A stretch of 32,000 nucleotides of DNA from Nostoc punctiforme PCC 73102 (GCF_000020025.1 NC_010628.1:7530001-7562000), one strand, 5' to 3'. Numbered from the stretch's first letter, positions 25,305 through 30,965 are shown. Numbers and translations: made by a program. Notes: generated by a model not told the origin, from the letters alone.

Positions 25305-25403
25305 GCTGAACTGAGTAGGCAGGTGAAAATAAACACAACATCAGAGAAACTGGTTTTTTGCCAGCATTATCTTTAAAATCTGCCTATACAAAAATAAACA
25401 ATG

Positions 25404-25457
25404 AAACCCCTCTTGCTTGTAATCACTTTACTATGACGCAAGCTGAGGGGGTTTTTT
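25404..25457 (+). terminator. Rho-independent terminator candidate
   Basis: AAACCCCTCTTGCTTG...CAAGCTGAGGGGGTTT forms a stem and is followed by a T6 run. Confidence 0.55.
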
Positions 25458-25628: not shown

Positions 25629-26345
25629 CTATAGCCCTGCAAACCACTCATAGCCCTGATCTTCCCAATAGCCTTTAAGAGGTAACAAACTGCTGACAAA
25701 TGTAATTTGAGTCACCCACTTACTTTGCTTGTAGCCCAGTTTAATTGGGGATGCTAGACGTATGGGCGCACCATTATTAACTGATAATGGTTGTCCATTC
25801 TTTTGATAAGCCATCAGGGTTTGGGGATGTACAGCAGAGGCAAGATCCCAGCTTTCATAATAGCCATCAGCAGATTTAAAGTAGACATAACGAACGTTTG
25901 ACTTCGGCTGTACCAGCGCTACTAAGTCTCGCAATCGCACACCTCCCCATTGAACGATCGCAGCCCAACCTTCAACACAGACATGGCGGATTACCATTGA
26001 AGTCAAGGGAAGTTTTTCAATATCCCCCATACTCAATTGCATCGGGTTACTAACCTCGCCATCAATCTTCAGGCGAAACTGCGCCGGATCAATTTGCGGT
26101 GTGAAATCAAAGGAATTGATGAGCAATTTGTCTGCTTCTATGGCACTAACAGGAAATTCTGGAACTGATTTCTGACTTAACAGGAGTGCTTCTAGACGTT
26201 GGTTTAGTGGTTCAGATATTTGCCGCAGATTATCTGAGAACAAATTTGTCCCACAGCCACCTAAAAGAAAGCCTACCCCTGAAAGTCCAGATAGTTGCAG
26301 TAATTGGCGACGGGATAAGGTGCGTTTGGGAAGAATCAGACTCAT
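25629..26345 (-). CDS. Molybdopterin-dependent oxidoreductase, MsrP/YedY-like (sulfite-oxidase fold), Tat-exported
   Basis: It has a twin-arginine signal (LSRRQLLQLSGLSGVGFLLGGC) and the Mo-ligand cysteine context RHVCVEGWAAIVQWGGV. At 238 aa it has the catalytic domain only. Confidence 0.8.
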   Translation of the reverse strand: MSLILPKRTLSRRQLLQLSGLSGVGFLLGGCGTNLFSDNLRQISEPLNQRLEALLLSQKSVPEFPVSAIEADKLLINSFDFTPQIDPAQFRLKIDGEVSNPMQLSMGDIEKLPLTSMVIRHVCVEGWAAIVQWGGVRLRDLVALVQPKSNVRYVYFKSADGYYESWDLASAVHPQTLMAYQKNGQPLSVNNGAPIRLASPIKLGYKQSKWVTQITFVSSLLPLKGYWEDQGYEWFAGL

Positions 26346-26352
26346 AAGACCT

Positions 26353-26949
26353 CTACAGGAACATAGACTTAACTAGACGGATACTTCCTACCTTCAGGGC
26401 AAGTAAGGAATGAGCAATTGTAAACAGTATGACTGTGGGAACAGTGATAAAGTGAACAGTGCGTAGAGTTTGCCAACTACCAAACAGCCCTGAAAGCCAA
26501 TGCAGTTGGGCAGGTTTGTACATCGCCAGACCACTCAAGATTGCCAGCAGTAGCACTGGAATGATAGCAGTATAAACTAGCCGATGCCATGCGTAGTTCT
26601 TACGCTTTGGGTTCTGGCTGACTTGCAATGCTTTTAAGTCACCGCCATCGGCAAAGCGACGCTGCCAACGCCGAGTTACAAAGATATAAAGCCCATACCA
26701 AAGTAAATTTAGTGAAAACAGCCACATAGCAGCAAAATGCCAGTGTCTGCCACCGCCTAGCCAACCTCCCAGCAAGATAAAGTCAGGAAAATGCCAACCT
26801 TCACGCCCGCCAAATACTGGATTAGCATTATATATTTGCAATCCGCTAGTAATCATCAACATGAGACTGATGATATTAATCCAGTGAAAGGTCTTTGATA
26901 GAAAAGTCTGACTTGGTGTTGAGCGGACTTTGCGTTTAGATGAGATCAT
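26353..26949 (-). CDS. Membrane b-type cytochrome (cytochrome b561 / Ni-hydrogenase CytB-like)
   Basis: The 198 aa protein has four TM helices with conserved His residues (HWINI..., HWHFAAMW, HRLVY, HFITV...AH). It lies 7 nt upstream of the Mo-oxidoreductase gene. Confidence 0.75.
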   Translation of the reverse strand: MISSKRKVRSTPSQTFLSKTFHWINIISLMLMITSGLQIYNANPVFGGREGWHFPDFILLGGWLGGGRHWHFAAMWLFSLNLLWYGLYIFVTRRWQRRFADGGDLKALQVSQNPKRKNYAWHRLVYTAIIPVLLLAILSGLAMYKPAQLHWLSGLFGSWQTLRTVHFITVPTVILFTIAHSLLALKVGSIRLVKSMFL

Positions 26950-27060
26950 ACCAATTTTGGATTTTGAATTTTGGATCTTAGATTTTTAGATTGTTCCCAG
27001 TCAGACTTTTGGATTGGGTCTTCTAATCCAAAATCTAAAATTGGCACGCTTATGGCTGTC

Positions 27061-27753
27061 TCATAGAGGTTGAGTAGGAAAAAACGGAGCCAGCCAAAGT
27101 TGTATCTGGACATCCCAACCGAGAAGAATAGCAATTGCTGTTGCTGCGATCGCTACGCCACCAACGCGCTGCAACACTGCACTATGGGGGCGAAGATTGA
27201 GGATTCGTTGGCTGAATACTCGTCCACCGTAGGCGATCGCTAATAAAGGTAAACCTGCTCCGATTCCATAAACAACCAATAGCCAAAATGCACCTGCGAC
27301 TTGATGATTAACTGCCGCTAGAACTAAAATTCCTCCCAAAACCGGCCCAGCACAGGGAGTCCACAAAAGCCCCAACTGAGTTCCTAGCCAAAACTCACCC
27401 ATGAGTCCGATTCGTGTGGGTTTCTTAGCCAAATTGCCGACTGGAATATAAGTAAATATTCGGTAACTCCAGGTAGGAAAAATTGCAATTAATCCCAAAA
27501 ATAAAATAAGTGCGATCGCGCCACTCCTTAATAAATTAGCCAAACCCGTAAACCAGGCTGATGTTACACCAAGTAAGCTACCTGCCAGGGCAAAACTAGC
27601 AATTAATCCCCCTACCAGTGCTACTGGCCCGTAAGTATGCGATTGGAGCGATCGGCCTAATAGCACAGGCAAAATCGGTAAAACACAGGGTGAAAGGACG
27701 TTCAAAACTCCCCCCAATAAAGCCAGACTAATTGATAAAGTAGAAGTCGTCAT
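27061..27753 (-). CDS. ccdA: Cytochrome c biogenesis / thiol-disulfide transporter CcdA (DsbD family)
   Basis: The two signature cysteines sit in LSPCVLPILP and WTPCAGPVLG, within six TM helices. Confidence 0.88.
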   Translation of the reverse strand: MTTSTLSISLALLGGVLNVLSPCVLPILPVLLGRSLQSHTYGPVALVGGLIASFALAGSLLGVTSAWFTGLANLLRSGAIALILFLGLIAIFPTWSYRIFTYIPVGNLAKKPTRIGLMGEFWLGTQLGLLWTPCAGPVLGGILVLAAVNHQVAGAFWLLVVYGIGAGLPLLAIAYGGRVFSQRILNLRPHSAVLQRVGGVAIAATAIAILLGWDVQIQLWLAPFFPTQPL

Positions 27754-27761
27754 AATTCCTT

Positions 27762-28367
27762 CTACCCCAATAGCTGGCGGATAGTTTGCTCTATTTTTTC
27801 GTATGCCCCTTCACCAATATGGTCATATTGTAGTAAGCCCTGGCGATCGGCTAAAAATATATGTGGCCAATACTGATTTTCGTAAGCGTTCCAAGTTTTA
27901 TATTCGTTATCAACCGGAACCGGATAAGTAATTTTGTGTTGTTGTAACGCCTTTTTTATATTGTTTGGATCTCGCTCAAAAGCAAACTCTGGTGTATGGA
28001 TACCAATCACCTTGAGTCCCTGCGACTCATACTGCTGATGCCATTTAGTGATGTAGGGCAGAGTACGCTGACAGTTAATACAAGCAAAAGTCCAAAACTG
28101 TATTAAGATAACACTGCCTTTGAGGTCAGCGATCGCTAAAGGGCTAGAATTAAGCCACTGACTGATACCCTGAAACTCTGGTAAACTCTTACCTGCCGGA
28201 GTTTTCACAGTAGTTTCTAAGTCTTGCGTATTGTTACTTTTTGCAGGAGAAATAGAAGGGGCATTCACTTTTCTAAAGTTGGAAAATGTTGTAGCTGCAC
28301 CGATTCCGACAACCCCTAAGCCAAGATAAAAAAGTAACTGACGGCGGTAAAGTAGGTTGTGATTCAT
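27762..28367 (-). CDS. Periplasmic thioredoxin-like (TlpA/ResA/DipZ-C-type) protein
   Basis: FWTFACINCQRTLP is a CxxC redox motif in a redoxin fold. I chose the ATG at 28367 (MNHNLLYRRQLLFYLGLG...), which follows AGGAG; the ORF-track start at 28418 is TTG. Confidence 0.82.
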   Translation of the reverse strand: MNHNLLYRRQLLFYLGLGVVGIGAATTFSNFRKVNAPSISPAKSNNTQDLETTVKTPAGKSLPEFQGISQWLNSSPLAIADLKGSVILIQFWTFACINCQRTLPYITKWHQQYESQGLKVIGIHTPEFAFERDPNNIKKALQQHKITYPVPVDNEYKTWNAYENQYWPHIFLADRQGLLQYDHIGEGAYEKIEQTIRQLLG

Positions 28368-28478
28368 CAGAATTTCTCCTGTTGAGGTAAAAGCACCAAA
28401 GTATAGGGATTGGCTCAAAATTTTCCTGATAAGCAGCCCCTAATCTTAGTACAAAAAAAGTGAGATGCAAGGCTGTGG

Positions 28479-28874
28479 CTAGGGCTTGGTGGAAGCCGGG
28501 GATTGCTTCATAGCATCGCCAGCCTTATCTTTACCCATCGCATCTTTGCCCATAGCACCGCCAGCTTTATCTTTACTCATCGCATCGCCAGCTTTGTCTT
28601 TGCCCATCGCATCTTTGCCCATTGCATCGCCAGCTTTGTCTTTACCCATCGCATCTTTGCCCATTGCACCGCCAGCTTTGTCTTTACCCATCACATCTTT
28701 GCCCATAGCATCGCCAGCTTTATCTTTGCCCATAGCATCGCCAGCTTTATCTTTACTCATTGCAGGAGAGGCTTCAGGGGCAATTTGATTGTTGCTTGCA
28801 GGACTGCTAGAGCAAGCAGTGAGACTGGCGGTTAAGCTTAAACCAGCAATTAAACAAAGTATTTTCCAGTTCAT
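28479..28874 (-). CDS. Met-rich repeat lipoprotein (pentapeptide MXKDX-repeat type)
   Basis: It has a signal peptide and lipobox (LSLTASLTAC). About 12 repeats of M-G/S-K-D-(A/V or KAGDA) follow (AMGKDKAGDAMGKDVMGKDKAGGAMGKDAMGKD...). The repeat units are visible at DNA level from 28500 to 28760. Confidence 0.8.
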   Translation of the reverse strand: MNWKILCLIAGLSLTASLTACSSSPASNNQIAPEASPAMSKDKAGDAMGKDKAGDAMGKDVMGKDKAGGAMGKDAMGKDKAGDAMGKDAMGKDKAGDAMSKDKAGGAMGKDAMGKDKAGDAMKQSPASTKP

Positions 28875-29204
28875 AGTCTTCTTTCGTCCTTTGGATAGTT
28901 CTTTTTGTATTGATTGACTCAGAGGAAATTAAGCTAAAAGCAGATTCATAAAGGCTATTGAGATAAAGAAGATGCCTTCTTGTAGAGGATTTCATCAGAC
29001 ATTTACTACTGATGTTTGATTTATCCCGAACATCTAAAGTATCTCTATAATGGCTGAGAGCTTATTGAAACTAAGCCATAATTTTCATAAATTTATCCCT
29101 TGAGAAAATTTAGTTAATTCTCAGCATTTTCTCAGGTATTCATGGTAGCTCAAAGCCAAAATCTAATTTAGGTATTATTTCAGCAAAATCTCATACTGAA
29201 GAAT

Positions 29205-30298: not shown

Positions 30299-30731
30299 GG
30301 AATTGTCCTTGAGGTTGCCGTACAGGTAGCTGGTTTTTATCTCGTTTAGAGAGGTTTTTGCCAGCTTTTGTAATATGTCTACCTGATCCGAGCAGGAATT
30401 AGACAGACAATCTAACATATTATTTTATCCACAGGTGCTAAGTCAAGCTTCCATTTGCCAAAATTCGTGATGGCGATCGCTTACCCAAAAATCAGAATTG
30501 ATACTTTTTATTGAAATACAGCTTCTATCTTAAGAGTGATTTTTACAAACTACTAGAAATATTTTAGATTCAAACTTATAGTTTCTTATCAAAATCTCCA
30601 CATTTCTCTTACTTATTTTAAAATTAAAATTACACAGCTTAATCTAATAGTTCTTTACAGAATTTAGTGAATCGAAAAAAATCAAATTACTACATTCAAA
30701 CCTGATATTGAAAACAGGAGATGGATTTGTC

Positions 30732-30965
30732 ATGACACAGCAAAATGCTACCCGACTTTTTCAAGCCGTAAAAAAAGATCAAGCATTGCAGCAAAAGCTT
30801 AAAGCAACAGCTGATCCAGAAGCTTTCATCAAGATTGCTAAAGAGCGTGGTTATGACTTCACAACTGATGAACTGGAAAATGAAATCAACAAGTTATCAG
30901 AAGAAGATTTAGCCGCCATTGTCAATCCAGGATGGGGAACTAGACGGCACATTCTTCCTAGATAA
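30732..30965 (+). CDS. Nif11-like leader peptide family protein (possible RiPP precursor)
   Basis: MTQQNATRLFQAVKKDQALQQKLKATADPEAFIKIAKERGYDFTTDELENEINKLSEEDLAAIV matches the Nif11-type leader. It is followed by the short tail NPGWGTRRHILPR. AGGAG lies 10 nt upstream of the ATG at 30732. Confidence 0.7.
   Translation: MTQQNATRLFQAVKKDQALQQKLKATADPEAFIKIAKERGYDFTTDELENEINKLSEEDLAAIVNPGWGTRRHILPR

Follow-up and report, generated by a model that had tools for sequence, protein, structure and literature searches.

So far, the sacrifice of methionine (Met) residues to oxidants, followed by repair through a molybdenum (Mo) reductase, is documented for Proteobacteria alone, for the most part pathogens and perchlorate reducers. 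In Azospira suillum, hypochlorite oxidises the strongly induced, secreted Met-rich peptide MrpX, and its regeneration by the co-transcribed YedY1Z1 was proposed by the authors (PMC4436054). BcrX of Brucella melitensis, an "MXKDX repeat protein", is co-transcribed with bcrQP, is induced by hypochlorous acid and aids resistance (PMC8315932). In uropathogenic Escherichia coli (UPEC) CFT073, the OrhK/OrhR two-component system governs a cytochrome b gene (c3566), a gene whose product is 27.6% identical to MsrP (c3567) and the gene of a Met-rich peptide (c3568), and deletion mutants of c3566 and c3567 grow more poorly with tert-butyl hydroperoxide (PMC8550376). A thiol-dependent route is documented in several bacteria, in which exported MsrA/B are reduced by a thioredoxin (Trx)-like protein that is fed through CcdA (PMC13488963). 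Here we analyse a five-gene cluster at positions 25629-28874, on the minus strand of a 32,000-nucleotide (nt) stretch of the genome of Nostoc punctiforme PCC 73102 (GCF_000020025.1, NC_010628.1:7530001-7562000). This whole stretch is called the window below, and coordinates without a locus number refer to it. A first-pass annotation made from the sequence alone was not aware of experimental work on MXKDX-repeat proteins or on their linkage to such genes; the studies of MrpX, BcrX and c3566-c3568 are exactly such work.

In this Nostoc cyanobacterium the cluster probably serves extracytoplasmic methionine-sulfoxide (MetSO) defence and repair. The lipoprotein encoded first would show ~12 exposed Met on a disordered, charged repeat tail, and would scavenge hypochlorite or other reactive oxygen and chlorine species sacrificially, its Met being turned into MetSO. 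A di-haem cytochrome b (PF01292) would carry electrons from the membrane quinol pool to a Mo enzyme, and the latter, exported by the twin-arginine translocation (Tat) route and probably lipid-anchored, would reduce MetSO in envelope proteins, the repeat protein included. CcdA would move electrons of cytoplasmic thioredoxin across the membrane to a DipZ-type thioredoxin-like protein, which most likely reduces an exported, thiol-dependent MsrA of the kind encoded within the cluster of other cyanobacteria. The first-pass annotation had already suggested a sacrificial Met sink recycled by the co-encoded reductase. This idea is reasonable and fits the evidence, and it is already established for the related systems MrpX, BcrXQP and c3566-c3568. 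What is new is a cyanobacterial, apparently lipid-anchored form that uses a reductase pair of the c3566/c3567 type and is joined to a DipZ-like thiol arm. Two independent electron inputs had also been suggested, of which the quinol arm is kept in our model, and the thiol arm probably serves MsrA and not the Mo enzyme.

The unit could work in the periplasm or in the thylakoid lumen. Cyanobacterial Tat substrates and lipoproteins reach both, and the sequence therefore decides for neither compartment. We regard action in the lumen, instead of or besides the periplasm, as rather unlikely. There, a plastoquinol-driven Mo reductase and the CcdA/DipZ-type thiol arm would keep the Met-rich lipoprotein and lumenal photosystem proteins reduced, and the Trx domain of the thiol arm does resemble the lumenal Trx-like domain of plant SOQ1. 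If true, it would be the first system dedicated to MetSO scavenging and repair in the photosynthetic lumen.

All five open reading frames (ORFs) lie in the same orientation. From 5′ to 3′ on the minus strand they encode the repeat lipoprotein (rep; 28479-28874, 131 amino acids (aa), identified by ORF, signal peptide, lipobox and repeat parse), the DipZ-type thioredoxin-like protein (trx; 27762-28367, 201 aa, Pfam AhpC-TSA/Redoxin/Thioredoxin_8), a CcdA/DsbD-type transmembrane thiol-electron conduit (ccdA; 27061-27753, 230 aa, PF02683 DsbD_TM), the membrane cytochrome b (cytb; 26353-26949, 198 aa, PF01292, b561/Ni-hydrogenase cytochrome b) and a short molybdoenzyme of the sulfite oxidase (SUOX) fold (mo; 25629-26345, 238 aa, PF00174). 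The first-pass annotation had described five co-oriented genes with gaps of 7-111 nt, and this was recovered, with gaps of 111, 8, 111 and 7 nt in order when ATG 28367 is taken as the start of trx. That start is preceded by AGGAG and agrees with the N-termini of orthologues; TTG 28418 is a less likely start. Overlapping the repeat on the plus strand are two further ORFs (28486-28788 and 28503-28835), which we set aside as by-products of its tandem structure.

The five genes are probably transcribed as a single unit, since neither a consensus scan nor RNA folding gave a terminator-like site between them on the coding strand, and a strong hairpin with a U-rich tract follows the Mo gene (25391-25455, minus strand; -21.8 kcal/mol, z -4.0). 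This hairpin is likely the terminator of the cluster, common to it and a convergent pentapeptide-repeat gene. Upstream of rep, a block of ~130 nt (28875-29010, minus strand), presumed to hold the promoter and 5′ untranslated region, is kept within Nostocales in a MAFFT alignment of upstream regions. The alignment gave no motif common to this block and the loci linked to extracytoplasmic function (ECF) sigma factors. No match was obtained on the coding strand, in the block or in the gaps between the genes, with a consensus sigma-70 scan, a scan in which promoter-like matches were fewer than in shuffled sequence. The block matched no Rfam family, and its RNA fold was not unusual (z +1.5). An Rfam scan of the whole window was also without a match, and thus without a molybdenum cofactor or other riboswitch. 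Among the window ORFs examined, none was recognised as a regulator gene of the ECF sigma/anti-sigma or two-component type.

The linkage of these genes was surveyed in 80 species-level cyanobacterial loci that encode the Mo enzyme, taken from species-representative genomes and sorted into architectures by running BLAST on every ORF. The five-gene order of the window recurs at 26 loci, and 2 more carried six genes with msrA added; rep-cytb-mo was found at 3 and cytb-mo at 5 loci, 38 had the Mo gene only, and at 6 the upstream sequence ended at a contig edge. The gene-neighbourhood survey called for in the first-pass annotation thereby bore out the association: the repeat gene is linked to cytb and mo at 31 of the 80 loci and is never found without intact copies of both. 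It is kept with them in the absence of trx and ccdA at three Nostoc loci (L016, L058 and L059; locus numbers are our own). Upstream, the cluster sits behind rplU-rpmA in Nostoc, and behind a DUF4079 gene at L067 and L082. In a metagenomic cyanobacterium (L083-L085), trx-ccdA is inverted and still lies between the Met-rich genes and cytb-mo; the Met-rich genes here number two, and an ECF sigma/anti-sigma pair and an exported MsrA are also encoded at these loci. The linkage is thus conserved across cyanobacterial orders and flanking contexts, more than expected by chance. The repeat protein appears to be functionally tied to the cytochrome b/Mo-enzyme pair, because it is always found with the intact pair, is kept where trx and ccdA are missing, has an analogue in Acaryochloris, and has a counterpart in a proteobacterial trio of genes.

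A few further observations were made on these loci. A conserved secreted protein of ~125 aa, with no Pfam match and the motif GGGDQLRRFF.GDLEP, has its gene shortly before the cluster in several cyanobacteria other than Nostoc (L096 2176-2553; L079 4087-4464; L082 4480-4860; L078 6851-7294), at L078 directly upstream of cytb-mo. One contig labelled "uncultured Acetobacteraceae bacterium" (L006, CAZZZY010000117.1) carries the Nostoc cluster at 96% protein identity; the label probably stems from wrong binning in a lichen metagenome.

The thioredoxin-like protein has a hydrophobic N-terminus with the motif RRQLL, and its CxxC motif is C-I-N-C. Its closest relationship is to the Trx domain of Mycobacterium tuberculosis DipZ (PDB 5cyy and 2hyx; 152 bits, E 1e-43), with the CINC motif aligned, ahead of the Trx-like domain of chloroplast SOQ1 (80 bits) and of the ResA type (53 bits). 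CcdA has a DsbD_TM domain with two membrane-embedded Cys, conserved in LSPCVLP and WTPCAGP. Since DipZ is a CcdA-Trx fusion, the window trx and ccdA are a split DipZ. A conserved twin-arginine-like motif (RRQLL, RRRQLL or RRREL) precedes the hydrophobic segment at the Trx-like N-terminus, both in the window (28367-28270) and at L077, L083 and L096; as a Tat-type signal or anchor it would be unusual in a Trx-fold protein.

A gene for an exported MsrA lies between ccdA and cytb in an Elainellales genome (L077), Stenomitos frigidus (L079), Leptolyngbya sp. BL-A-14 (L096) and on a plasmid of Kovacikia minuta (L098). The encoded MsrA has an N-terminal hydrophobic anchor and the active-site motif GCFWG (at L079 the PMSR domain spans residues 68-220), and the six-gene form rep-trx-ccdA-msrA-cytb-mo is compact, with gaps of 3-46 nt at L077. 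At L083 the same MsrA is found 3 kb away, past an ECF sigma factor and an RskA_C-type anti-sigma factor. No MsrA-like sequence or msrA remnant was detected in the 32-kb window, the ccdA-cytb spacer included, and there is no Nostoc entry among the best 120 exported MsrA homologues, in which Leptolyngbya-like genera dominate. The CcdA-thioredoxin arm most likely feeds a second, thiol-dependent reductase (MsrA) and not the Mo enzyme, given the in-cluster msrA of four lineages and the documented CcdA-Trx-MsrAB systems.

The ccdA-cytb spacer (26950-27060, minus strand, 111 nt; RNA fold z -2.15) holds a long AT-rich inverted repeat (TTTTAGATTTTGGATT ... AATCCAAAATTGG), exactly at the position of msrA in other cyanobacteria; a deletion scar and a dispersed Nostoc repeat are two possible origins. 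At L083 (3596-4930) and L095 (3770-5151), the Met-rich gene is adjoined by genes for an ECF sigma factor and an anti-sigma factor of the RskA_C type; at L095, in Coleofasciculus, this pair is divergent from the repeat gene. In M. tuberculosis, SigK/RskA controls dipZ, and the link between a DipZ-type module and an RskA-type regulator may be conserved across phyla.

That the five genes are instead two or three independent neighbouring units, with trx-ccdA used for cytochrome c maturation or general disulfide reduction, appears unlikely. CcdA/ResA-type pairs classically serve cytochrome c biogenesis, and the thioredoxin-like protein does have an NCBIfam ResA match; the two 111-nt gaps would also suit this explanation, as would the dispensability of trx-ccdA at L016, L058 and L059 and its inversion at L083. 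However, wherever trx-ccdA was seen with the cluster, in whichever orientation or context, it lay next to rep and cytb-mo; in four lineages the exported msrA follows it directly, and its Trx domain is of the DipZ and not the ResA type by the scores given above. Neither 111-nt gap contains a terminator-like structure, and the rep-trx spacer (28368-28478, minus strand) has an RNA fold z of only +0.40.

With a MetSO repair unit as the preferred reading, the Mo enzyme would be its quinol-driven reductase. It matches PF00174 (E 7e-35, 120 bits), and its best NCBIfam model is MsrP (NF003767), although it reaches 98.3 bits against a cut-off of 207, over model positions 94-248 only, and is 238 aa long, where MsrP equivalogs score at least 207 bits and have ~320-334 aa. 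The enzyme has a twin-arginine motif, SRRQLL (RR at residues 12-13), followed by a lipobox-like L-G-G-C. The Oxidored_molyb domain, the Mo-ligand Cys and the Tat signal of the MsrP-like, SUOX-fold enzymes are all found. The Mo ligand, Cys123 in R-x-x-C-[VI]-E-x-W, is invariant in 9 of 9 aligned enzymes including MsrP. All 8 short enzymes in this alignment share the RR motif and the G-C lipobox column, and none has the 19-residue insertion or the C-terminal extension of MsrP. An AlphaFold2 model, built from a 12-sequence alignment in which all members were at least 77% identical, was unusable (mean predicted local distance difference test score 31.5).

The cytochrome b matches PF01292 only. It carries neither PF01794 nor similarity to MsrQ (no BLAST match to MsrQ of E. 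coli K-12), and its NCBIfam matches are cytochrome b subunits of hydrogenases and formate dehydrogenases. Four His residues (H22, H71, H166 and H180) are invariant across cyanobacterial and proteobacterial homologues, which fits two b-type haems. The family assignments of the first-pass annotation hold for all five proteins, with the corrections that the Mo enzyme lies below the MsrP cut-off and has a lipobox-like sequence and that its partner is not of the MsrQ type. In Limnospira, an MsrP-like gene is present with no recognisable MsrQ (PMC8400943), which is consistent with a different partner in cyanobacteria.

Homologous trios of a cytochrome b gene, a short Mo-enzyme gene and a small Met-rich gene were found on a Rahnella plasmid, on plasmid p666 of enterotoxigenic E. 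coli (ETEC) and in UPEC CFT073. The Prokaryotic Genome Annotation Pipeline names the first two genes "cytochrome b/b6 domain-containing protein" and "molybdopterin-dependent oxidoreductase"; the small third gene is a "pentapeptide MXKDX repeat protein" in Rahnella and some E. coli plasmids, and a "hypothetical protein" in p666 and CFT073. The window Mo enzyme has 35% identity to c3567 (E 2e-40) and 37% to the p666 enzyme (E 8e-48), compared with 29% to K-12 MsrP (E 2e-25), and the window cytochrome b has 33% identity to that of p666 (E 2e-28). Both proteins are similar to c3567 and c3566 over the full length, with RR and the GC lipobox in the one, four His in the other, and cytb followed by mo. 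Judged by these features, the window pair is not orthologous to MsrQ/MsrP and is best placed in the short c3566/c3567 clade, which comprises 2225 cluster representatives at E<=1e-10. Natural PF01292-PF00174 fusions with the cytochrome N-terminal and Oxidored_molyb C-terminal (P0191, 571 aa; P0281, 476 aa) support the partnership of the two proteins.

Other long relatives of the Mo enzyme (~350-430 aa) have an N-terminal region of ~200 aa without a Pfam match. The c3566 gene of CFT073 (L091 15552-16150) is a frameshifted pseudogene in RefSeq, with internal stops on translation; published deletion phenotypes exist nonetheless. In plasmid loci of Rhizobium (L086 2503-3120) and Methylobacterium (L088 4618-5148), a secreted protein of ~176-205 aa with no Pfam match adjoins cytb-mo; this neighbour is not Met-rich, and some Proteobacteria thus provide the pair with different partners.

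The cytochrome b/Mo-enzyme pair might alternatively act on a small molecule, for example by oxidising sulfite to feed the quinone pool or by reducing free sulfoxides or N-oxides, with the repeat lipoprotein unrelated and disordered. We find this quite improbable. The sulfite-oxidase family fold, the usual role of PF01292 partners as acceptors of electrons from periplasmic dehydrogenases, and the persistence of the Mo gene alone in 38 species would all agree with it. Against this, the nearest models and structures are those of MsrP/YedY: the SoxC model gives 56 bits, compared with 98 for MsrP, and the best PDB match is YedY/MsrP (1xdq; E 1e-19, 74 bits), compared with ~1e-7 and 34 bits for sulfite oxidases. 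The enzyme also lacks the sulfite-oxidase dimerisation domain, Met-rich proteins recur with the pair in two phyla, MsrA accompanies it as well, and the E. coli homologue protects against peroxide.

The repeat lipoprotein would be the Met sink of the MetSO unit. Its signal peptide carries the lipobox L-T-A-C, and its C-terminus is MKQSPASTKP. As the first-pass annotation had noted (~12 Met in ~110 residues), the mature protein is very rich in Met, with 12 in 111 residues (10.8%, against 1.4% in 15 other window ORFs), and K and D make up a further 32%. It contains 11 M-x-K-D motifs in units of 5 (MGKDA) or 9 residues (MGKDKAGDA); Tandem Repeats Finder places the DNA repeat that encodes this core at 28508-28764, with periods of 15, 27 and 42 nt. 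TIGR02953 (penta_MxKDx) gives the window protein 27.6 bits (E 2e-6), below the cut-off of 41, which is passed by the positional orthologues at L066 (89 bits) and L096 (53 bits) and by the Rahnella protein (91 bits); UPEC c3568, with 35 bits, is below it too. The window protein is a divergent relative with mixed 5- and 9-residue units.

Only 42 homologues of the repeat lipoprotein were found by sequence, nearly all cyanobacterial. Among Nostoc species the number of M.KD motifs differs from 3 to 12, and among cyanobacterial orthologues the units vary widely (MGKDKAGDA, MSNDKMGKDKAGDA, or AMKGD in up to ~20 copies), with the N-terminus, the lipobox and the C-terminal "...TKP" kept. Acaryochloris has a dissimilar Met-rich protein before its cytb-mo pair, with GMMKKDD units (MMKKDD type) and an ordinary signal peptide, and at L083 two Met-rich genes are adjacent, one of them with AMSRPGT/AMSQTGT units. 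Because the repeats vary, the Acaryochloris protein is dissimilar and L083 has two types, the conserved feature is an exported chain rich in Met and charged or polar residues beside the reductase, and not one repeat sequence. The second Met-rich protein of L083 (5252-5743, 163 aa) has no K-D units; its N-terminus is that of the repeat lipoprotein with the lipobox Cys lost, and its gene is directly upstream of the MKKDKAGDA-type gene.

It is very unlikely that the repeat lipoprotein is a Met-based buffer of Cu(I) or soft metals in the envelope, with redox neighbours that reflect a copper or metal stress regulon: Met-rich motifs of known periplasmic copper proteins do bind Cu(I), and the Rhizobium cytb-mo locus L086 adjoins a "heavy metal sensor histidine kinase/response regulator" pair, but "heavy metal" is a generic annotation of CusS/HprS-like kinases, the repeats are without His or Cys and their Met spacing (5 or 9) varies between orthologues, and none of the ~95 loci examined has a gene for a copper ATPase, a multicopper oxidase or CusF/CopC beside the cluster, while MsrA is found inside it.

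Several points weigh against a dedicated MetSO defence and repair unit. The scores of the Mo enzyme and of the repeat protein fall short of the MsrP and TIGR02953 cut-offs, and in low-complexity repeat proteins homology and convergence are inseparable. We know of no biochemical activity established for the short Mo-enzyme clade. PF01292 cytochromes usually pass electrons from periplasmic dehydrogenases to quinone, and the direction of electron flow in the cluster is therefore assumed. The window has no msrA whose product could be the client of its thiol arm, and the two 111-nt gaps could hold internal promoters. Finally, the four upstream genes are deleted and the Mo gene is kept in 38 of the 80 species, many Nostoc species among them. 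Remnants of cytb or ccdA of differing length persist in 12 of these 38 (for example L001 7790-7993 and L020 7467-7993, and also L010 and L012), which suggests repeated independent deletions. The Mo gene is under purifying selection, with a ratio of nonsynonymous to synonymous substitution rates of 0.08 in Mo-only loci and 0.096 in complete loci. Being intact alone, the Mo enzyme must have work and an electron source beyond these neighbours, and the repeat protein is an accessory and not an obligate substrate.

Outside the cluster, the window contains a small ORF with a Nif11 domain (30708-30965, plus strand; E 8e-20), upstream of rplU and on the opposite strand. The Nif11 domain is a leader domain in some cyanobacterial peptide precursors. 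HIP1 sites (GCGATCGC) are common in the window, and Nostoc homologues are 92-98% identical.

If our reading is correct, sacrificial Met with Mo-dependent repair is now also present in cyanobacteria, which make their own oxidants. The cyanobacterial reductase would be distinct, consisting of a widespread short clade with a b561-type cytochrome and not of MsrPQ; on the function of this clade, only the genetics of E. coli c3566/c3567 bears. The six-gene form unites both envelope routes of MetSO reduction, the thiol route of CcdA-Trx-MsrA and the quinol route of cytb-mo, with the sink in one operon. As a model it is compact and testable; the finding carries a known mechanism over to oxygenic phototrophs and leaves expectations intact. 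The presence/absence polymorphism among Nostoc offers natural comparisons for tolerance of oxidants, high light or desiccation. Literature searches on DipZ with methionine sulfoxide and on MsrP in cyanobacteria returned no description of this cluster, and none of the papers searched had CcdA-Trx, a quinol-driven Mo reductase and a Met-rich sink combined within a single cluster.

Compared with known systems, the window enzyme shares with E. coli MsrPQ (YedYZ) the SUOX-fold Mo domain, the Mo-ligand Cys and the Tat signal. E. coli MsrP has its 19-residue insertion and a C-terminal extension of ~50 residues, both absent in the window enzyme, which in turn has a lipobox, and MsrQ is unrelated to the window cytochrome b. 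The CcdA-Etrx-MsrAB2 pathway of Streptococcus pneumoniae and those of Haemophilus influenzae and Fusobacterium nucleatum likewise use a CcdA conduit and an exported Trx-like protein (PMC13488963). These CcdA-Trx-MsrA/B pathways include an Msr, whereas no Msr gene, and hence no exported MsrA or MsrB client near the pair, is found in the window; exported MsrA occurs in sister cyanobacteria. DipZ of M. tuberculosis is a fusion, whereas CcdA and the Trx-like protein of the window are encoded by separate genes.

MrpX-YedY1Z1 and BcrXQP share the concept of a sacrificial secreted Met-rich peptide with a Mo reductase and a membrane haem partner, and in the window, too, a small exported protein with many Met and charged residues is encoded beside these two. 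Their reductases are described as homologues of YedYZ/MsrPQ, whereas the window pair scores under the MsrP cut-off and has a PF01292 cytochrome. They are regulated by the ECF sigma system SigF/NrsF or by BcrS/AbcS, and the window has no adjacent dedicated regulator. The nearest relative at the level of sequence is the c3566-c3567-c3568 type, with full-length identities of ~35-38% for the Mo enzyme and 33-37% for the cytochrome b. This type likewise has a PF01292 cytochrome, a Mo enzyme with twin-arginine and GC-lipobox motifs (247-267 aa) and a small secreted MXKDX-type protein. In Proteobacteria the Met-rich gene closes the trio, whereas it opens the window cluster, and its product in the window is, unlike that of the c3566-c3568 type, a lipoprotein with 9-residue units. 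The two-component system OrhK/OrhR controls c3566-c3568 in UPEC, whereas no such system is adjacent in the window. The window cluster includes a trx-ccdA module, which the proteobacterial loci examined lack, and its host is a phototroph, that of c3566-c3568 an enterobacterium.

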